From an uncultured archaeon (GTDB lineage Archaea; Altiarchaeota; Altiarchaeia; IMC4; SCGC-AAA252-I15), in assembly GCA_902384455.1 (NCBI GenBank), contig CABMCB010000020.1:1-21273 (forward strand): DNA of 21,273 bases. Reading direction: 5' to 3'. A program made the translations under genes and the position numbers. The notes beneath the pieces were generated by a model, which was not told the origin of the DNA, did no database searches, and saw nothing but the letters and a program-made list of their open reading frames with translations. This document shows positions 1 to 18,141 of this stretch, piece after piece (positions within the stretch are counted from its first letter, which is position 1; every line of letters begins with the position of its first letter).

Positions 1-3000
1 ACGTCTTGTTCTTCATCGTCTTCCTCAACGTCTGTTTCTTCCCCGAGTACTACTACGTCTTTTTCTTCTACGTCCACTTCTACGTCTGTTTCTTCTACGA
101 GTACTTCTACGTCTGTTTCTTCCACCAGTACTTCAACGAGTTCATCCACCTCCTCAACGTCCGTTCCGGTCTGCGAAGGGGATAGTGGTGATCCTTGTGT
201 TTGTACCGATGCCAGCCCCCCAGATCCCCAAGACCGCTGCAATGACTGTAACAGATGCACTAACGATTTCGACAACAACGGCGTCTGCGAACATTACCCC
301 ACCGTAGGCGACCCGAACTGCGCAGAAGGCTCCGCCAACGAGGACTGCTGCCACGTCCCACCCTCGTCTACGTCCACTTCTGTGTCTGTGACTTCGACTT
401 CTGTGTCTACGTCCACTTCTGTTTCTGTGACTTGGACGTCTACTTCGACGTCTACTTCTGTGTCTGTGACTTCGACTTCTGTGTCTACGTCTACTTCCGT
501 GTCTGTTACGTCCACTTCCACCTCTACGTCGTTGCCTGAGGCGTGTACTTCTGGTTGTGATTGTAGTGGTGCGCCCGTTTGCGATGATTGTAATAAGTGT
601 AGCGACGACTTCTACGACGGTATTTCATGTTGGCATATGCCTGTTGTGGGCGACCCCAGTTGCAGCGCTGGCGATGAAAACGTGGATTGCTGTAATTTCC
701 CGCCTACTTCCACGTCTACTTCGACGTCTGTGTCTGTGACGTCTACTTCCACGTCTACTTCGACGTCTGTTTCTGTGACTTGGACGTCTACTTCCACGTC
801 TACTTCGACGTCTGTTTCTGTGACTTGGACGTCTACTTCCACGTCTACTTCGACGTCTGTTTCTGTGACTCAGACTTCGGTGACAACATCAACATCTACG
901 TCTACTTCCGTGTCTGTTACGTCCACTTCCACCTCTACGTCGTTGCCTGAGGCGTGTACTTCTGGTTGTGATTGTAGTGGTGCGCCTGTTTGTGATGATT
1001 GTAATAAGTGTAGCGACGACTTCTTTGACGGGTTTTCATGTCATCATTGGCCTGTTTGGGGTGACCCCGGTTGTAGTATTGATGATGCTTATGTGGATTG
1101 CTGTAATTTCCCGCCTACTTCCACGTCTACTTCAACCTCTGTGTCTGTTACGTCCACTTCCACGTCGACTTCAGTCACAATCAACCCGACCTCAACATCG
1201 TCCACGGTGACAGTAACCTTTACAACGACAACTAATCCCTGCTGCGAATGCGACATATGCTACGAAGCATCATCCTGCAACGACTGCAATTCATGCACAT
1301 ACGACTTCCTATCCCCATTCAACGGACAATGCGAACACTGGTTTAGCTGGTTCGTACCCGGCTGCGACGAATGCGGAACAGTAAACTGCTGCACAACCCC
1401 GCCCACATCAACTTCCACCTCAACGTCTGTTACTGTAACTCAAACATCTACGTCCACTTCCACGTCCACTTCCACATCTAAGTCTTTGCCTGATGCGTGA
1501 ACTTCAGCTTGTGATTGTAGTGGTGCGACTGTTTGTTATTATTGTATTAAGTGTAGCGACGAATTCTATGACGGACGCTCATGTCATCATTGGCCTGTTT
1601 GGGGTGACCCCGGTTGTAGTATTGATGATGCTTATGTGGATTGCTGTAATTTCCCGCCTACGTCCACTTCTACGTCCACATCTGTTTCTGTGACTTGGAC
1701 GTCTACTTCCACTTCAACTTCAGTTCCAGTCAACCCAACCTCAACATCGTCCACTGTAACAGTAACCTTCACTACAACAACAAACCCCTGCTGCAGCTGC
1801 GACATATGCCAAGGCCCAATATCCTGCGACGACTGCAACCCCTGCACAGACGACTTCTACGTTGAATTCAACGGACAATGCGAACACTGTCCAAGATGGT
1901 TTGACCCCGCCTGCGACGAATGCTCATCAGCAGACTGCTGCACAACCCCGCCAACATCAACTTCCACCTCCACCTCCATGCCCGTTGTATCCACTTCCTC
2001 GTCTACTTCCACTTCCGTAACCATCGTATCCACTTCCTCATCCACTTCCACTTCCGTAACCATCGTATCCACATCCTCCTCCACTTCCACCTCAATATAC
2101 AGCTCCACATCAACAACACTCTGCATACCAAGCGACATACCCCCATACTGCGAAGACTGCGACCCCTGCACAGACGACCAAGCAACATTCGACTACGAAA
2201 ACTGGATATACATATGCGCCTTCACGCCAAACGGAGCATGCGCCTCAACAACCACATCCACCTCAGTAACAGTCACAATAACAAGCACATCAACAACCAT
2301 ACAAGGATGCAGCTACTGCAACACAGACCAAGACTGCCCACTAGGCGAATGCAGCTGGTGCAACACAACCACCCACTGGTGCCAAGCAGGAGACTGCGGC
2401 AAACCATGCACAACAAACTACGACTGCCAAACAGGATGCCCAACATGCTACAACGGCCACTGCGACGCATGCAGAGGACTAATACTAACCAACACCGAAT
2501 TCGACTGCAAGAAACCAGTATTCAACATAACCGTAATCAACACAGCCCGCGAAATACCCCTACTGGAAATCAACGTAACAGACATACTATACCAACAAAC
2601 ATACATGAACGGCTTCGTAGGTCCCTGGGTAATGCTAGCCAACAGAACATGGAACCACGCAACACCCCTTGAACCAAACGAATCCATCACCTTCACATGG
2701 AGCTACTCCAAGCTGCCGGGACCATACTTCTACCCGCGAAAACAGTTCTTCTGCAGCCTGCCTTTCAACGACCAAACCAACGTCTGCTACATGAACACTC
2801 TACCCCCAACATGCTACAACGAAGTCCAATACGGCAACATAAACGCAAACAACACAGACGCAGTGTTCTGCCCGCCACCAACATGCAACATACTGCTAAT
2901 ATACAACGTGTCCTCCTCCAGCGACATCAAAGAATGCGACGTCTGCCTATGGTCCAACTTCACAGGCAGATGGGAAGGCGCACTAATCACAATGAACAGC

Positions 3001-3252
3001 TCAGCACACAACCACCCAAGCAGTCTATGCCCATCTTTGGGCGGCGGTCTGGGCGAATGGGTTGATCAAGGTTGGGTCATAAATCCAGTTCCTGGGACTA
3101 TGTACCCTGTGAACAACCGCCTGAACAACTTCACTTTATACGGAATGTGGTGCAACGACGGAGACTGGCTGTGGTCTGTGGCATGCAAGAACGACGAAGG
3201 CATGTTTGCCGTAGCAGAGCAACCGTGGCTGATGAAAATAAGGTCTGCTTAA
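1..3252 (+). CDS. 5'-truncated giant extracellular/surface glycoprotein: Thr/Ser-rich linkers alternating with Cys-rich modules, then C-terminal Ig-like domains; one in-frame TGA at 1498-1500
   Basis: Frame +1 is open from base 1 (TSCSSSS...VCEGDSGDPCVC...) to the TGA at 1498-1500 and continues in the same frame to TAA at 3252. Track ORFs 382..1500 and 1636..3252 are therefore one reading frame. It has repeated C-x-D-C-N-x-C-[TS]-x-D-F modules and many N-x-S/T sequons in the C-terminal part. No C-terminal TM anchor is seen. Confidence 0.85.
532..1659 (+). repeat. Three 174-bp (58-aa) Cys-rich type A modules at 532-705, 943-1116 and 1486-1659
   Basis: Direct alignment of LPEACTSGCDCSGAPVCDDCNKCSDDF...CCNFPP. 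The last 81 nt of copies 2 and 3 are identical. A more diverged relative lies at about 172-363. Confidence 0.95.
1234..1953 (+). repeat. Two 171-bp Cys-rich type B modules at 1234-1404 and 1783-1953
   Basis: NPCCxCDIC...CxDCNxCTxDF...FNGQCEH...CDEC...CCTTPP, each preceded by NPTSTSSTVTVTFTTTT. Confidence 0.9.
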
Positions 3253-6014: not shown

Positions 6015-7814
6015 ATGCGCCAATTTACGATACTTATCCTGCTCTTGGTTCTCTACCTCCTTACCACTTCAGTTTCCGCAACAAGCATAATACAGCAAAA
6101 CTGGCGCATACCGCTGATTTCAGGAGTAGACTACATAACCGTTCAAGACGCAGGAAACGGGGAAAAAGAAATAATCGCCGTATCCGGCCTCAGAGGAGCG
6201 CGAACGACGATATACAAAATCACCCCCTCAGGCGAACCGATAGAAGACTTCCTCATACCACGCTTCTACTCATACGCCTACCCCACAGAAGTGCACGTCC
6301 TAGTCAGACCCGCCCAAATAGACGGCACAACAAAATACATAACCGCATCCGAAGCGATAGGCCAGGCGACGATAGCCCACAACCTATATCTGGCTGAAAG
6401 AACATACTCACGGGAAAAATCCGCCGTAACGACGGAAATGGCGTGGGCCTACCGTGAATCCGGCCTCACAACAGACGCTTTGGTTTCATCTGAAAACGGC
6501 TCTTCCGAGATATTCACGGTAAGCGAAGACACTTTCGTTAGGATTCTTAGCGCCGACGGCAACCTGATTTTAAATCGCACTTTAGGCGAACCAATCTGGA
6601 TGATAGCGAAGCTGCCTCCTAAGTTCAACAGAACTTCAGAATACGTTGCGGGCTCATCCAGCCACCTATTCATAATAAACCAAAGCTTGGACGTAGTCCG
6701 CAAAGTTCCGTCACCCTCCCGGCCCCGCAGGCTGATAGCATTCAACGACACGTCAGGGGCGCAGATACTCGCATTATTCGCCGATTCAGCAATCCTATAC
6801 GACACAGAACTTGAACCCAAAACAGTGCTCCCCATAACTCAAATGCAGGCGGCTGTCGCATCCGACATAAACGAAGACAATGAGACCGAGCTGGTGATGT
6901 CCACAGACTACGACCTGCTGGTTCTATCCACCGCCGGAGACGTGATACTAAACCAGACTCTCCCCGAAAAGACCGTCGACTTGCTTACCGCAGAAACCAA
7001 CAACGCCAAGCAGATAATCGTCGGCACTCACGATTCCATCGTCGCCTACACAATAAACGTCCAGCCGCTGTACGCGACAAAAGCAGAACTGCTTTCCGGC
7101 AAAGCCGAAATAAGCGCCCAAAAAAACATGCACCAAAACTCCGCCGACCAATACAGTCACGCCGCGGAATTATTCCTCAAAGCAGGCATGCCTACGCAAG
7201 CGCAGGAAGCCTTAACTAAAGCGGACGTTCAGTTGAAGGAAAAAGCGGCGATTCAAGCTGTTGACGCCATAAAGAACGCATTAAAGTCAGGCGACGTGGA
7301 CGGTGCCCGCCGGCTGTATTACGAGGCCCTCTCTAACGCCGGCGACACAGCAGACATTGCTCCTTACGTTAAAGACGTCAGAGCGCTTGAGGCCTCAATA
7401 AACTCCGCAGAAAAAGCCGACGCAGTATACGCTAATGCGAGCGAAAGTTATGTTGCGTCGAATTACGCGGACGCATTGGCAAAAGCAGATGAGGCGATAC
7501 GACTATACGTGGAAGTTGACAATCAAGTGGGAATAAACAAGGCGCGGTCGCTTAAGTCTCTTGTCGAACGCAGAACGTCCGAGGAGAACCTCGCCCAATC
7601 AAAGCCGGTCTCATACTCCACAACAACGATAAAACCCAAGCAGACGCAAGAGGCGCCGGCCACCGAAAATAATGCGATAATAGCAATCCTTCTCGCAGTG
7701 GTCCTACTGGCGATACTTCTTGCCCTCCTAAAGCTGCGCTACAGAAGCCCCCCAAAAAGGAACGATAAAACACTCAAAAGCCCAACAGAAACTAAACCAG
7801 CTACTTCTTCTTAA
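6015..7814 (+). CDS. Membrane-anchored extracellular protein: signal peptide, beta-rich (propeller/FG-GAP-like) region, helical TPR-like region, C-terminal TM helix with basic tail
   Basis: Hydrophobic N-terminus (FTILILLLVLYLL...SVSA), a DINEDNETELV FG-GAP-like motif, Ala-rich helical repeats, and IIAILLAVVLLAILLALL followed by KLRYR. Confidence 0.8.
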   Translation: MRQFTILILLLVLYLLTTSVSATSIIQQNWRIPLISGVDYITVQDAGNGEKEIIAVSGLRGARTTIYKITPSGEPIEDFLIPRFYSYAYPTEVHVLVRPAQIDGTTKYITASEAIGQATIAHNLYLAERTYSREKSAVTTEMAWAYRESGLTTDALVSSENGSSEIFTVSEDTFVRILSADGNLILNRTLGEPIWMIAKLPPKFNRTSEYVAGSSSHLFIINQSLDVVRKVPSPSRPRRLIAFNDTSGAQILALFADSAILYDTELEPKTVLPITQMQAAVASDINEDNETELVMSTDYDLLVLSTAGDVILNQTLPEKTVDLLTAETNNAKQIIVGTHDSIVAYTINVQPLYATKAELLSGKAEISAQKNMHQNSADQYSHAAELFLKAGMPTQAQEALTKADVQLKEKAAIQAVDAIKNALKSGDVDGARRLYYEALSNAGDTADIAPYVKDVRALEASINSAEKADAVYANASESYVASNYADALAKADEAIRLYVEVDNQVGINKARSLKSLVERRTSEENLAQSKPVSYSTTTIKPKQTQEAPATENNAIIAILLAVVLLAILLALLKLRYRSPPKRNDKTLKSPTETKPATSS

Positions 7815-7893
7815 GGTGACGTAGCCTACGCCTACGCTTCTTCAGCTTGTGCTTGTTCATCTGGGCGCGCTTGCGCTTGCGTCCACACGGCAT
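7801..7893 (-). CDS. 30-aa basic peptide resembling ribosomal protein bS22/mS38 (AURKAIP1/COX24, DUF1713 domain)
   Basis: Hand translation gives MPCGRKRKRAQMNKHKLKKRRRRLRHLKKK*, with ATG at 7893 and TAG at 7803-7801. This matches the MPxG[KR]KRKR..M..HK.KKR.R..RH.KK pattern recalled for this family. A TATA-like TTTATAT lies about 25 nt upstream. It is below the ORF-track cutoff. Confidence 0.8.
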   Translation of the reverse strand: MPCGRKRKRAQMNKHKLKKRRRRLRHLKKK

Positions 7894-7914
7894 ACTACCT
7901 ACTTACGAGGCAAG

Positions 7915-7924
7915 AATATAAATA
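7915..7924. promoter_or_regulatory. TATA box in the divergent promoter region of the bS22-like gene and the lipoprotein gene
   Basis: AATATAAATA (TATTTATATT on the - strand), about 25-30 nt from both start codons. Confidence 0.55.
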
Positions 7925-7953
7925 CTCACCAACAATTGATTAGCTGAAACCAG

Positions 7954-8664
7954 ATGCGCAAAACACTCCTAATTCTCTGCCTTACAGTAGCCATATCAGC
8001 ATGCCTATCCCAAACATCCGACTACTCCATAAACGGCCAAGTCAAATGGCCCACATCCCTAACGCGGCAACAGCAGCAATCTGAAATCACAAGGCTACTG
8101 ACACTTGGAACAGAAGAAGTAGGATACACATGCAACATAGTCTCAATACCATCATGGGGCCAAAACATCACCGCAGACTACGCAGTAAGCGGAAAAAGAA
8201 TCCGCATGGTACAAACGAACCCGCAAACAAACATAACCACAGTAGGCCTGCAAAACGAAGACGGCCTCTTCATTTTTGATCCCGTAAATAAGTCGGGAAT
8301 CAAAATCGTGGATTCCTCTCAGATGCCTTCCTACACCAGTATTTCCAGTCAGATGGCGGTGGACACTTCCGGGGCGAGCATTGTAGGCGAAGACATGTTT
8401 GACAACCGGAGGGTTGTGGTTATAGACCTGGATTACCCCTCTGCGAAAGGGCGAGTATGGCTGTGGAAGGACCACGGAGTCCCTCTTAGAATCGTCACCC
8501 GGGAAGAACGGGGGCTGTCTGAATTCAACTGCTTTGACGCCAAAATAAACCCCCCCGAAAAATTATTTCTGATTCCGGACGACGTGGAAATCAAAGATGT
8601 TTCGCCATTGCTAACTCAGATGGTGCGGCAAAACAGCAGCTTAGGGCCCACAGTAACTAGGTGA
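7954..8664 (+). CDS. Putative lipoprotein with LolA/DUF4412-like beta fold
   Basis: Signal peptide ending in lipobox-like ISAC. The C-terminal RVWLWKDHGVPLRI...PPEKLFLIP pattern is typical of LolA-like/DUF4412 proteins (fold call is inference). Confidence 0.7.
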   Translation: MRKTLLILCLTVAISACLSQTSDYSINGQVKWPTSLTRQQQQSEITRLLTLGTEEVGYTCNIVSIPSWGQNITADYAVSGKRIRMVQTNPQTNITTVGLQNEDGLFIFDPVNKSGIKIVDSSQMPSYTSISSQMAVDTSGASIVGEDMFDNRRVVVIDLDYPSAKGRVWLWKDHGVPLRIVTREERGLSEFNCFDAKINPPEKLFLIPDDVEIKDVSPLLTQMVRQNSSLGPTVTR

Positions 8665-9523
8665 TCAAAACCCCGCCGTAACCGACGACCTGATTAATGT
8701 CTCCCGTGGATTCCGCAGAAGTCCTATAATCAACAAGCTCAGATTTCTTAGCGCCCAACGCCTTGGCGGCATACAAAGCTGCCGCAACCGCGCCGAAGCC
8801 GCACATGCTGATGTCGTACTCGCTTACGGCGTTAAAGAGCTTTTCAGGAGAAAGCGCCAGAATCTCCTTCAATGCGTACTTGTCCTGGTTGCGGGCGAAT
8901 TCGTCGGCGCTCATGCCGGAAGGCGGCATCTGATTATACATCGCCCCCGCATGAGTCATATCCGAAGAAGCCACAACAGTCACCCTAAGGCCTGTTTCCT
9001 TCACTGCTTTAGCGACCGCCTCACCCAAGTCCCTGCAAATCTTAAGGAACATTCCGTCCGGACTCAAATGGGCTACAGTCACAGGAACGAAGCTGAACGG
9101 CTGCTTGAAACTCTGAAGCAAAGGCAACTGAACCTCAATGGAATGCTCTTGGCTATGAGCTACAACATCCTCAGCAAGATACTTGCTGTTGCCAAGCATC
9201 GCGTCAGCAAGCTTAGAATCCACATCAACATCACCCAAAGGCGTCCTAAAAGCACCCTGCCTAACGACCGCAAAATGCTCGCCCATACCCGTATGATTAG
9301 GCCCGAAAATCACGAACGCAGGAGGAAAACGAATCTTACCATAAACTTTAGCTGCACAACCACCCGAATAAACATAACCTGCATGAGGCACCATCACCGC
9401 CAAAGCATCCAAAGATACGCGCTCAGGCGCAGGCTTAATCCTACCCAAAAGATTAGTAAGCAAACCCACATCCCGCGGATAAAAACTCCCCGCCACAACA
9501 GGAGGCCGAATATACTTCTCCAC
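8657..9523 (-). CDS. amrB: AmmeMemoRadiSam system protein B (MEMO1 family)
   Basis: RPPVVAGSFYP, PHAGYVYSG, GPNHTG, EHSIEVQLP, SSDMTH, SMCG and VVGYG motifs. Confidence 0.95.
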   Translation of the reverse strand: MEKYIRPPVVAGSFYPRDVGLLTNLLGRIKPAPERVSLDALAVMVPHAGYVYSGGCAAKVYGKIRFPPAFVIFGPNHTGMGEHFAVVRQGAFRTPLGDVDVDSKLADAMLGNSKYLAEDVVAHSQEHSIEVQLPLLQSFKQPFSFVPVTVAHLSPDGMFLKICRDLGEAVAKAVKETGLRVTVVASSDMTHAGAMYNQMPPSGMSADEFARNQDKYALKEILALSPEKLFNAVSEYDISMCGFGAVAAALYAAKALGAKKSELVDYRTSAESTGDINQVVGYGGVLIT

Positions 9524-9559: not shown

Positions 9560-9775
9560 ATGAACGAACTGCCCCTTGCGCCAGTCAAAAGGATATTAAA
9601 GAACGCCAACGACGACAGCCCAGTAAGCGACGACGCAGTCGCAGCCATGGCAGAAGCCATGGAGGAATGGGCGATGAAAGTCGGCCGCAGGGCGCAGGAG
9701 TTGGTGCGTCACCGAGACAAGGTGACGATAGAGGAAAAAGACGTGCGCTTGGCGCTTAAGACGCTGAAGGAATAA
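9560..9775 (+). CDS. Archaeal histone (HMf family), divergent variant
   Basis: ELPLAPVKRILK...VSDDA...RH..K.TI...DV.LA aligns with the HMfA/HMfB histone fold; 71 aa. Confidence 0.92.
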   Translation: MNELPLAPVKRILKNANDDSPVSDDAVAAMAEAMEEWAMKVGRRAQELVRHRDKVTIEEKDVRLALKTLKE

Positions 9776-11362: not shown

Positions 11363-11728
11363 ATGCGAAATTTCAAAGAGCGCGTGGAACCAGGAACCGA
11401 ATTCGGCAGCATGGAATCCGTCGGCGAAGACGGCCAACCCCAGATAATCCGAGTCCGCCTGCCACGGAAAGGTCAGATGCTTGGCGAAGTGGAACAGCTC
11501 CTTGGAGACCGCAGGATGAGGGTGAAATGCACCGACGGCTTAATCCGCCTATGCCGGATACCCGGTAAAATACGCCGCCGAATATGGATAAAAGAAGGCA
11601 ACATAGTCCTCATAGAACCCTGGGAAGTCCAAGCCCACGAACGCGGCGACATCCTCATGCGATACACGCCCCAGCAGGCCAACTGGCTAAGAGACAGAGG
11701 ATACACCAAAGGCATAGACGAAGCATAA
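11363..11728 (+). CDS. eif1A: Translation initiation factor aIF-1A
   Basis: RVRLP, LLGDRRMRVKC.DG..RLCRIPGKIRRRIWI and RGDI..RY motifs. Confidence 0.97.
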   Translation: MRNFKERVEPGTEFGSMESVGEDGQPQIIRVRLPRKGQMLGEVEQLLGDRRMRVKCTDGLIRLCRIPGKIRRRIWIKEGNIVLIEPWEVQAHERGDILMRYTPQQANWLRDRGYTKGIDEA

Positions 11729-16485: not shown

Positions 16486-17028
16486 CTATTTTTTCTTGCC
16501 TTTCTTCTGGCGCATGGCGTCGTGCAAGTCGATGTAGTAGACGCCTTCCTCAATCCGGACTATGACGGGGTTGCCGCCCATCAATGAAGAAACGTCTATG
16601 TCGTATTTGCCCTCCTCCAGGATGCGAATAGTCTCTATTGAAAGCTTAACTGGCACTCCTACGCCCTTAACGCGGCTCAGCTCCTTACCCAACCAATCAA
16701 GAGTATCCTTAGGCTCAACAAGCGGCTCAATAACAGGCCGAGCATCCTCCTTAGGCTGCGGCGCGAAAGGCTCAGAAGAAGGCTCCTTCTTGCCGTTTAT
16801 TGCGGCTGCTACCTCATTCAATTCCTCCTTTCCGCCAGCGTCGGCGGAATCCTGCATGTCCCGCATCCTCTGGTAGTTCTTTTCCCACTTGGCGACTTCG
16901 GCGCTGCCGGGCCTCAGATACATAAGAAACCGTTTGCCGCAGCGGCACGCTCCATGCTTCATCACCCTCTGAAGTCCCTCAGAGCCCTCCACATAGACGG
17001 CCCCACAAACGTTGCAGGCGTAAGGCAT
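16486..17028 (-). CDS. oapC: OapC/ArvC family Zn-ribbon protein (DUF2072)
   Basis: MPYAC..CG.....GS.......C.CG.RF.Y N-terminus and IETIRILEEGKYDIDV.SL...GVYYIDL C-terminus; third gene of the operon (TAATG overlap). Confidence 0.88.
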   Translation of the reverse strand: MPYACNVCGAVYVEGSEGLQRVMKHGACRCGKRFLMYLRPGSAEVAKWEKNYQRMRDMQDSADAGGKEELNEVAAAINGKKEPSSEPFAPQPKEDARPVIEPLVEPKDTLDWLGKELSRVKGVGVPVKLSIETIRILEEGKYDIDVSSLMGGNPVIVRIEEGVYYIDLHDAMRQKKGKKK

Positions 17029-17411
17029 TATCTCTTCTTCTTGTCTTCCTCGTCGGATTCGGACAAAGCAAGCATGCTAATCTTCTGAGGCTCCTTCTTG
17101 ATGTCCCTAATGAGTTTGCTGGGGCCTATGACCGTCAATCCGCCCGTAGTTCCTCCAAGCATCTTAATCAGGCGCTCCCTTATTCCGAAGGCTCCGCGCT
17201 CCCTTAACGTGCTGACTTCGATGCCGGGAAACTTCTTTGAAACCTCCTTCATAGTGGCCTCAATCAGCCGGCTCTCTTCGACGTGAGTCAGACTCTCCTC
17301 CACAACGAGAATCTTGTTCTTCTTGACGTGCTCCAGAATGTAGCCCATCTTTTCCTCCTCAGTCATGTTGGAAAGCACGTCCGACGAAAGGAATTCTAGT
17401 TCAACGCTCAT
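17028..17411 (-). CDS. oapB: OapB/ArvB family protein (DUF2073)
   Basis: EESRLIEATM, FPGIEV and GLTVIGPS motifs; lies between the GTPase and the Zn-ribbon gene. Confidence 0.9.
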   Translation of the reverse strand: MSVELEFLSSDVLSNMTEEEKMGYILEHVKKNKILVVEESLTHVEESRLIEATMKEVSKKFPGIEVSTLRERGAFGIRERLIKMLGGTTGGLTVIGPSKLIRDIKKEPQKISMLALSESDEEDKKKR

Positions 17412-17415
17412 AAAG

Positions 17416-18039
17416 TCACCTCGAATGCTTGGCTATCGCCCTGTAAAGGTCGTCGACGTGAAGGCCCTCCTTAGCGCTTATCCCAACGACAGGGTGCTGC
17501 GGGAAGGCCTCCTTAATCTGTTCTATGTTGGAGTTCTTCAAATCCACCTTGTTGGCGACGATTATCACGGGAATCTCCCTCGCCTCGAGGTTGCCGATAA
17601 TAGTTATGTTAACCTGAGTGTAAGGGTCTTTGGTGGAGTCCAACACGACAAGCGCAGTATCAACGTGCTCAAGAAACTTGATGGCCTCAATAACGCCCTT
17701 AGTCGCCTCCTTCGCCCTAAGGCGCGCATCCTTCTCCTTCATACCAAAAGAAAGAAACTCCTCATAATCAATCTTAGTGGCAATACCCGGCATATCCAAA
17801 ATGCTCATGTCAATGGTCCTCCCGTCAGTCTTAACCATCACATGCTCCTTCTTCTGCACCGCACGCGTCTCATGAGGAATCTCGCTTACAGTACCAACAG
17901 GCTCGCCAGTCCAATCAACGCTAATCTTATTGGCCAACGTAGTCTTACCCGCATTAGGCGGCCCGTACAAGCCAAGCCGAATCTTCTTTTTGCTACCGAA
18001 AATGTTCTTAAACCAACCTAAAATCTTGTGAAAAGGCAC
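17416..18039 (-). CDS. oapA: Era-like small GTPase OapA/ArvA
   Basis: G1 GPPNAGKT, PHETR, G3 DMPG, G4 NKVD, G5 SA, and family motifs RAKEATKG and DPYTQVN. The start is set at GTG 18039, preceded by a GGAGGGG Shine-Dalgarno; the track start at 18105 runs through the promoter. Confidence 0.92.
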   Translation of the reverse strand: MPFHKILGWFKNIFGSKKKIRLGLYGPPNAGKTTLANKISVDWTGEPVGTVSEIPHETRAVQKKEHVMVKTDGRTIDMSILDMPGIATKIDYEEFLSFGMKEKDARLRAKEATKGVIEAIKFLEHVDTALVVLDSTKDPYTQVNITIIGNLEAREIPVIIVANKVDLKNSNIEQIKEAFPQHPVVGISAKEGLHVDDLYRAIAKHSR

Positions 18040-18141
18040 AGCAAACCCCTCCAAACTCCATAACCTATGCGCGCCAAACTTAATAAAGCGGACGCGCCCA
18101 CACAAAGCGTTTTTAAGTCAAGACGCCTCCATATATGGTAC

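Follow-up and report, generated by a model that had tools for sequence, protein, structure and literature searches.

A bS22-like peptide gene in Altiarchaeota and its predicted place in the ribosomal pocket of eL41

The window analyzed here is the whole 21,273-nucleotide contig CABMCB010000020.1 of an uncultured archaeon of the phylum Altiarchaeota (assembly GCA_902384455.1), the minus strand of which contains a gene of 30 codons at 7801..7893 (ATG at 7893..7891, TAG at 7803..7801). The encoded peptide, MPCGRKRKRAQMNKHKLKKRRRRLRHLKKK, comprises 17 lysines or arginines among its 30 residues and no tryptophan. Judging by its sequence, the peptide is a member of the bS22/mS38 (AURKAIP1/COX24, DUF1713) family, known so far from bacteria (bS22) and mitochondria (mS38). 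We consider it probable that it is an archaeal small-subunit ribosomal protein of this family, which fills the pocket of eL41 and is expressed from its own TATA promoter. The open reading frame (ORF) is a real, single-copy, independently promoted gene under purifying selection. The window belongs to a metagenome-assembled genome (MAG; designated G000 below) of 2.41 Mb in 103 contigs, with 91.9% completeness and 0.9% contamination, and it was compared with the phylum as represented by 61 species genomes of one class and three orders.

Family assignment of the peptide

The search of PDB (E ≤ 10) with the single peptide returned only bS22 chains, namely 8fmw_V (E 7.8e-4), 7jil_5 (0.02) and 9i5v_10 (0.11), which bears out the likeness to bS22 of the MPxG(K/R)KRK type proposed in an earlier reading of the DNA made from its letters (the sequence-only reading). 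With a profile of the archaeal bS22-like peptides (A1), four distinct chain sequences were retrieved at the same threshold, three of the bS22 type and one of mS38 (E 6.3). Of these, 8fmw_V, named '30S ribosomal protein bS22', was matched with E 5.6e-7, residues 1-28 being aligned on 1-28, while 9i5v_10 and 7jil_5 were matched with E 4.3e-5 and 2e-4, respectively, each over residues 1-28 or 1-29. A broader profile (A3), based on 35 archaeal and bacterial peptides that align without gaps and share invariant K6, H15, K16, K18 and K19, recovered the window's own gene and 5/5 positive genomes; the distinct PDB chain sequences that it matched (E ≤ 10, best 3e-9) were bS22, mS38, AURKAIP1 or DUF1713 proteins in 16 cases out of 16, the mycobacterial type included.

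We take 8fmw to be the Borreliella burgdorferi 70S ribosome entry, that of PMC10618245. Its bS22 chain, 28 residues long against 30 here, possesses the identical N-terminus MPCGRKRK, the pairs H15-K16 and K18-K19 in the same register, the tail R-H-K-K and about 60% of lysine or arginine; the differences lie in the core, which is (K/Q)M(R/N)KHKLKKRR in the archaeal peptides versus KISTHKRKKK in 8fmw_V, and in the archaeal host. The Borrelia gene was unannotated, was found by translated search and is regarded as a candidate essential gene; it starts with GUG, unlike the gene of the window with its ATG behind a TATA box and apparently no leader (PMC10618245). Borrelia bS22 alone among the ribosomal proteins escaped mass spectrometry in that study, and trypsin would degrade a peptide that is 57% K or R. 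Bacteroidota-type bS22, represented by 7jil chain 5 from Flavobacterium johnsoniae (PMC12123416) and by 9i5v chain 10 (named AURKAIP1/COX24 domain-containing protein), is also 30 residues long and aligns with our peptide without gaps from residue 1 to 29-30, the MPxGKKRK start, the HK and KK pairs and the RHKKK end being common to them. It differs by S or N, not C, at position 3, by THKRKKR in place of KHKLKKRR and by its bacterial hosts. In the ribosome this type is located between h44 and h45 and contacts H70, as was described for Porphyromonas bS22, a 30-residue 'hypothetical protein' (PMC12123416). Actinobacterial bS22 (5o5j, 5o61 and 8crx; A3 E 0.03-0.09) and mitochondrial mS38/AURKAIP1/Cox24 (A3 E 0.016-0.9) fall into the same profile family as much weaker matches, the actinobacterial chains being missed by A1 alone; in mS38 the motif forms the C-terminal part of a longer protein. 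In size and composition the window peptide agrees with the family pattern of 28-33 residues, K or R at over half of the positions, and conserved H-K and K-K pairs. The host contig is archaeal and not bacterial or mitochondrial, the 'b' and 'm' prefixes being a naming convention and not a property of the protein.

The profile match also stands above that of shuffled K/R-rich peptides, as a hidden Markov model (HMM) of 12 distinct bacterial peptides gave the window peptide 45.4 bits, the score reached by 0/2000 composition-preserving shuffles (mean -4.0, sd 3.0, maximum 13.5 bits). In the AlphaFold2 model residues 1-4 are extended or coiled and residues 5-29 form a helix (predicted local distance difference test value 88.8), which is compatible with the short extended N-terminus and the long helix, bent in situ, of bS22, a single helix not being diagnostic.

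Several results weigh against the assignment. The Pfam family COX24_C (PF08213, formerly DUF1713) matched the peptide with 14.3 bits (E 0.038; genome-wide E 0.5) at a cut-off of 23 bits, and it matched 25 of the 37 archaeal members at E ≤ 1 with the best E of 0.0034; the hmmscan check against DUF1713/bS22 proposed in the sequence-only reading is, therefore, negative if taken alone. No match to the peptide appeared in the NCBIfam scan, nor was any found in PDB by Foldseek with the 30-residue helix model. The peptide is of low complexity, with the HMMER bias of about 24 bits, and an HMM of 32 bacterial peptides of the MGSV type gave it 2.1 bits, the value reached by 39/2000 shuffles. The shuffle control with the 12 bacterial peptides is itself partly circular, these peptides having been retrieved by their likeness to the archaeal ones; the PDB matches are not circular. 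As to COX24_C, it passed its own cut-off in 1/14 control genomes and was silent in Bacteroides thetaiotaomicron, which we assume, from its phylum, to have a bS22 gene. Considering these facts, the model may be insensitive to bS22 of the MPxG type and a poor judge of it.

Conservation of the gene and its relation to eL41

The single-peptide search gave matches in 38/41 genomes, G000 counted, and complete copies of the ORF were obtained from 37 loci, representing 37 of these 41 genomes. The sequence-only reading had proposed a test of conservation among related genomes, and the gene proved conserved: its reading frame is intact in 37/39 loci (one from G000, 37 from relatives and one unrelated), and the 37 copies align without internal gaps to the consensus MPCGRKRKxQKMRKHKLKKRRKKxRHxKK with M1, K6, H15, K16 and R20 invariant. 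In two genera of one Altiarchaeota family MGVSRKKKR stands instead of MPCGRKRK. Matches to A1 were detected in 48/61 Altiarchaeota genomes, including 44/49 in the order of the window, 4/4 in the second order (f8) and 0/8 in the third one (f9). All 13 genomes of the phylum with ≥90% completeness and ≤5% contamination were positive, and the five A1-negative genomes of the window's order are 70-83% complete. Among 36 distinct coding sequences, the mean pairwise difference at codon positions 1/2/3 was 0.20/0.16/0.47, and the proportion of synonymous differences (pS) exceeded that of nonsynonymous ones (pN) in 630/630 pairs; the median dN/dS for the 114 pairs with unsaturated pS was 0.145. At one locus (L022, in G039:C123) the 11 N-terminal residues of the peptide are matched twice more, at 1962-1994 and 2117-2149, approximately 150 and 300 nucleotides upstream of the intact gene, which suggests short duplicated 5' fragments. 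The library of protein representatives contained 19 matches at E ≤ 0.001. Since a few of these entries are 29-30 residues long, some gene callers do call the bS22-like peptide; that standard ones would miss it was a prediction of the sequence-only reading.

The ORF is present as it had been described, with its ATG start, a 14-nucleotide overlap (7801..7814) with the 3'-end of a convergent 599-residue ORF and a TATA-like box said to lie 'about 25 nt' upstream. This box, TTTATATT, occupies 7915..7922 on the minus strand, or -29..-22 counted from A of the ATG, and the 18 nucleotides just before this codon contain no recognizable Shine-Dalgarno-like motif. The spacing between TTTATATT and the ATG implies a leaderless or nearly leaderless transcript, as predicted from the sequence. 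The same layout recurs in the phylum: among the 36 distinct upstream regions from Altiarchaeota, 31 have a match to TTTATATA of at least 6/8 with its start at -34..-26, compared with 4-12 in control windows (six other upstream windows of equal width), and a match of at least 7/8 was detected in 22 regions versus 0-2 in the controls. Shine-Dalgarno-like motifs occur in just three Altiarchaeota loci, and the start geometry is that predicted for archaeal leaderless mRNA. A scan of 7600-8100 for sigma-70 promoters and terminators gave nothing, as expected for an archaeon.

The pocket in question is known from archaea as the site of another peptide, eL41/eS32, found in the cavity of h27/h44/h45 of the Pyrococcus 30S subunit (PMC7005279). 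Archaeal eL41, represented for example by 6sw9_0, 6skf_Bk and 9fny_A2, comprises 25-37 residues and, like bS22, is described as a basic helix in the same pocket, the N-terminal tail being directed toward the P site. It differs by a Trp-containing core, MRWKW.KKR.RRLKR, by the lack of significant profile similarity and by a complementary distribution in the sampled groups. For the search of eL41 we used a profile (A2) of 28 distinct archaeal peptides, whose loci were found with a short DNA pattern in MAGs of Thermococci, Thermoplasmata, Micrarchaeota, Bathyarchaeota, Asgard, DHVE2 and Methanocaldococcus. Against PDB (E ≤ 1) it matched 30 distinct chain sequences, all of them eL41/eS32 and none bS22. 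The eukaryote-type Pfam family PF05162 (Ribosomal_L41) did not match the bS22-like ORF; it produced scattered sub-threshold matches in Altiarchaeota and remained under its cut-off even in control archaea.

The peptide could, in principle, be a very divergent archaeal eL41/eS32, its likeness to bS22 having arisen by convergence under the constraints of a shared rRNA pocket. Indeed, hhalign places K..MRkHKlKKRR and K.gMRWKWiKKRiRR in one register with 36% identity over 22 columns, and bS22, mS38 and eL41 are described in the literature as structurally analogous. The hhalign probability for A1 versus A2 is, however, 5%; A1, A3 and the single peptide match no eL41 chain in PDB, as A2 matches no bS22 chain; MPCGRKRK is residue for residue that of 8fmw_V, and the peptide is devoid of Trp. 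We regard this explanation as very improbable and uphold the distinction from archaeal eL41 drawn in the sequence-only reading, with which the silence of PF05162 also agrees.

No match to A2 at E ≤ 1 was found in G000, which is 91.9% complete; it has no eL41 detectable by this profile. The distributions of the two peptides were compared in samples of 151 genomes each from Thermoplasmatota and from the phylum that holds a Methanoperedens MAG, which we take to be Halobacteriota of GTDB. In Thermoplasmatota eL41 (A2) was detected in 116/151 genomes and the bS22-like peptide (A1) in 0/151, in Halobacteriota eL41 in 0/151 and the bS22-like peptide in 25/151, and in Altiarchaeota a single genome out of 61 gave a significant eL41 match, none being native. 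That candidate (G005:C397, locus L378, 39-137; MKRSSRRWKKK...MRWKW...) was rejected as probably mis-binned from another archaeal lineage. It is situated on a 1.6-kb stretch about 240 nucleotides upstream of an archaeal 16S rRNA gene (378-1637). With the 16S genes of Altiarchaeota this gene shares 71-73% identity, whereas the second 16S gene of G005, on C174, reaches 82-86% with those of its own family, and the contamination of G005 is 6%. A 16S fragment 81% identical to that of G005:C397 was observed in G020:C82 (L385).

Thus, eL41 and the bS22-like peptide are complementary in the sampled groups, and the mutual exclusivity for which the sequence-only reading proposed a test holds to this extent (48/61, 25/151 and 0/151 for the bS22-like peptide versus 0, 0 and 116/151 for eL41 in Altiarchaeota, Halobacteriota and Thermoplasmatota, respectively), many genomes having neither peptide. 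These latter genomes weigh against the proposed role. Neither peptide was detected in 126/151 of the sampled Halobacteriota, and in the third Altiarchaeota order (G053-G060, 63-87% complete) both the bS22-like peptide and eL41 were found in 0/8 genomes, A3 being negative even at E ≤ 10 in five of these eight. Because of these two groups the pocket need not be filled, and a 'replacement' of eL41 is not forced. Moreover, the complementary pattern comprises very few independent lineages, and it is from homology alone that we infer ribosome binding, occupancy of the pocket and functional replacement of eL41. In 16S sequence the third order shares only 74-76% identity with the remaining Altiarchaeota orders.

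In the mechanism we propose, the stand-alone gene would be transcribed from its own archaeal TATA promoter into a leaderless or nearly leaderless mRNA, and its product would be a very basic small-subunit ribosomal protein of 28-33 residues of the bS22/mS38 family. By homology, a short extended N-terminus is predicted to be followed by one long helix, and the peptide would insert into the 16S rRNA pocket of h27, h44 and h45 beside the decoding center, touching the large subunit. In other archaea this pocket is occupied by eL41/eS32. Since Altiarchaeota, like the sampled Halobacteriota, are without detectable eL41, it is most likely, as far as may be predicted from sequence, that the bS22-like peptide fills the pocket in their ribosomes.

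Genomic surroundings and integrity of the contig

The peptide gene is followed by the convergent 599-residue ORF (6015..7814, plus strand), which, like the divergent upstream 236-residue ORF (7954..8664, plus strand), has no Pfam family. The 60-nucleotide gap between the peptide gene and the latter ORF (7894..7953) contains the TATA box. Further upstream, on the same strand as the peptide gene, lies the gene of a Memo-like protein (8657..9523, minus strand; PF01875, E 1.5e-66). Homologs of these flanking genes stand beside the peptide gene in other Altiarchaeota, the Memo-like gene at 11 loci, the 236-residue ORF at eight and the 599-residue ORF at 11, and the orientations are kept, with the 599-residue homolog convergent downstream, the 236-residue one upstream on the opposite strand and the Memo-like gene upstream on the same strand. 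This context is stable inside one Altiarchaeota family, and other families have different ones; a ribosomal-protein operon around the peptide gene was found in none of the Altiarchaeota contexts compared.

Such surroundings, with no ribosomal genes but a Memo-like gene and a pair of ORFs without a recognized family, might be expected if the conserved basic peptide had a non-ribosomal role, such as chaperoning nucleic acids or binding DNA in the manner of protamines. We find this hardly credible in view of the full-length, register-exact similarity to peptides inside solved ribosomes, and stand-alone, unannotated genes are equally the rule for bacterial bS22 (PMC10618245).

On both sides of the peptide gene the 21-kb contig encodes archaeal proteins, including a histone fold protein, aIF1A, RIO1, NMD3, OapB and OapC, and the nearest relatives of the window's adenylosuccinate lyase (57-68% identity) belong to Candidatus Altiarchaeota, Altiarchaeales or Altarchaeum records. 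Because archaeal genes lie on both sides and homologs of the flanks are conserved at 8-11 other Altiarchaeota loci, the contig is non-chimeric at the peptide gene, and the archaeal housekeeping surroundings noted in the sequence-only reading withstood the chimera check. That the ORF is no gene of this organism, having arisen by chance or having come, as bacterial DNA, into an archaeal contig through joining or binning, is therefore of negligible probability. G000 does have at least one foreign contig; against this stand, apart from the conserved flanks, the archaeal TATA box at a conserved distance and the occurrence of the peptide in 13/13 high-quality genomes of the phylum, and the dN/dS value speaks against a chance ORF. 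The contig concerned, C6 (2.9 kb), is foreign at the least within this archaeal bin, because it carries a bacterial small-subunit rRNA gene (1103-2424, minus strand; Rfam RF00177, 1242 bits). A fragment of group II intron domains D1-D4 is located on the same contig (790-877). No archaeal 16S rRNA gene of G000 surfaced in the 16S search.

Elsewhere in the window, the archaeal histone is encoded at 9560-9775 and aIF1A at 11363-11728. The genes of OapC (16486-17028), OapB (17028-17411) and a GTPase (17416-18105) follow one another on the minus strand as an origin-associated gene cluster, and so a replication origin may be situated near 16486-18105. Imperfect tandem arrays with periods of 27, 39, 45, 54, 78 and 90 and 79-94% matches lie within 1-1500 and 1987-2090, inside two long plus-strand ORFs (1-1500 and 1636-3252) without a Pfam family, which probably encode repetitive surface proteins.

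Wider distribution, start signals and possible origin

The sequence-only reading had presented the peptide as a bacterial-type one in this particular archaeon. The bacterial type was borne out, and the peculiarity was not: the gene occurs in two of three orders of the phylum and in a subset of Halobacteriota, where its carriers are MAGs labeled ANME-1/Methanophagales, Syntrophoarchaeum and Methanocellales. When 185,579 species genomes were scanned for a pattern of the KMRKHK core, at least 80 loci came up. Among the matches listed, the archaeal ones come, by MAG titles, from Altiarchaeota/Altiarchaeales, ANME-1, Methanophagales/Methanophagaceae, Methanoxibalbensis, Methanospirareceae, Syntrophoarchaeum and Methanocellales/Methanocellaceae, with a few labeled Methanosarcinales, Methanomicrobia or Halobacteria, and the bacterial ones come from Sumerlaeota, Desulfomonile, Nitrospirota, Thermodesulfovibrionales, Myxococcota, Dehalococcoidia, Actinomycetes and others. 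The bacterial peptides, which have the KMRKHK core in common with the archaeal ones, carry MGSVIKKRRKKMRKHK(Y/H)KKLR. Bacterial peptides of the MPCG type are represented among the matches listed by MAGs of Planctomycetales, Omnitrophota, WOR-3, Marinimicrobia, Calditrichota and Cardinium. The A1 search for related loci, which is no census, gave mainly bacterial ones among the matches listed.

The signals preceding the gene are specific to the lineage. In the Altiarchaeota type a TATA box is followed by what is predicted to be a leaderless ATG, in the Methanocellales type GGGAGG is followed, after 6 nucleotides, by GTG, and in the ANME-1 type GGTGGTGA precedes ATT by 5-6 nucleotides in 26/27 distinct loci (L095-L108, L122, L127, L133, L135, L151, L155, L160, L168, L175, L176, L180, L190 and L198 represent this type). 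In 24 of these 27 loci no ATG, GTG or TTG occurs between the in-frame stop and ATT, and from these sequences the ANME-1-type gene is predicted to start at a conserved AUU that is preceded by a strong Shine-Dalgarno sequence. Such a start resembles the autoregulation of infC in bacteria. If real, it would tie synthesis of the peptide to start-codon stringency, with a possible feedback loop for a protein adjacent to the P site. Among the matches listed, the eL41 genes of Thermoplasmata MAGs (L261-L330) mostly start with TTG and that of a Methanocaldococcus MAG (L334) with ATA, both behind Shine-Dalgarno sequences of the GGTG type; non-AUG starts seem common to both kinds of pocket peptides.

Regarding the history of the family, the peptide tree (156 rows, 29 columns) left 59/95 inner branches unsupported and indicated no donor or direction. 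The approximately unbiased (AU) test did not reject a topology in which a single branch separates all 96 archaeal peptides from the others (p 0.68), and the tree thus constrained surpassed that of the free search by 11.3 log-likelihood units, so that a single entry into Archaea is possible on these alignments. As the family is broad in Bacteria and patchy in Archaea, we tentatively favor transfer from Bacteria, in one event or more.

The same AU result is compatible with an ancient archaeal family, passed down by vertical descent since an early archaeal or pre-domain ancestor, with many losses, and not acquired from bacteria, the gene and its function being as proposed above. The core KMRKHKLKKRRKKMR, common to archaeal peptides of two phyla, and the stable gene context within one Altiarchaeota family fit this origin as well. 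Yet the peptide was detected in 0/151 genomes of Thermoplasmatota and, with A3, in 0/151 of Thermoproteota (the phylum of a Bathyarchaeota MAG), 0/151 of the phylum of a Woesearchaeota MAG and 0/40 of that of a Methanocaldococcus MAG; it is also absent from the 126 Halobacteriota and the eight Altiarchaeota genomes mentioned above and spread, among the matches listed, across many bacterial phyla, while 29 columns cannot resolve the tree. We consider an ancient origin unlikely.

A more specific version of the transfer from Bacteria would treat the pocket peptide as an exchangeable module, eL41/eS32 having been lost in Altiarchaeota, ANME-1/Syntropharchaeia and Methanocellales and bacterial bS22 captured instead. 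We put this forward tentatively, as a possibility about which considerable doubt is in order. If true, a ribosomal protein would have crossed from one domain to another, become established throughout entire orders and then acquired archaeal signals for its expression.

In the literature, bS22 is listed for Actinobacteria, Bacteroidota and Borrelia, and archaea are credited with eL41, with unexplained gaps (PMC7005279, PMC10618245, PMC12123416); L41e was recognized in at most 53/87 archaeal genomes, several independent losses being proposed (PMC3353972). Within the portions of text accessible to a full-text search no report of a bS22/mS38-family gene in archaea was found, and the supplements of PMC10618245 and PMC7005279 may bear on novelty.

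Taken together, the results describe a known family in an unexpected domain, with lineage-specific expression signals and a history that is possibly inter-domain. Entire archaeal orders in which eL41 was not found encode and conserve the family, with proper promoters, and in some of the archaea without an identified eL41 this peptide may be what occupies the pocket. Expectation of bS22 in 'other bacterial species' has already been accompanied by the suggestion of a universal name (PMC10618245), and the archaeal peptides support one such name for the pocket peptides. For annotation, a gene of 30 codons with an ATG, GTG or ATT start is easily missed, and the finding bears on structural work on the ribosomes of Altiarchaeota, ANME-1 or Methanocellales. 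The bS22-like peptide is also a rare candidate for the exchange of a ribosomal protein between domains.

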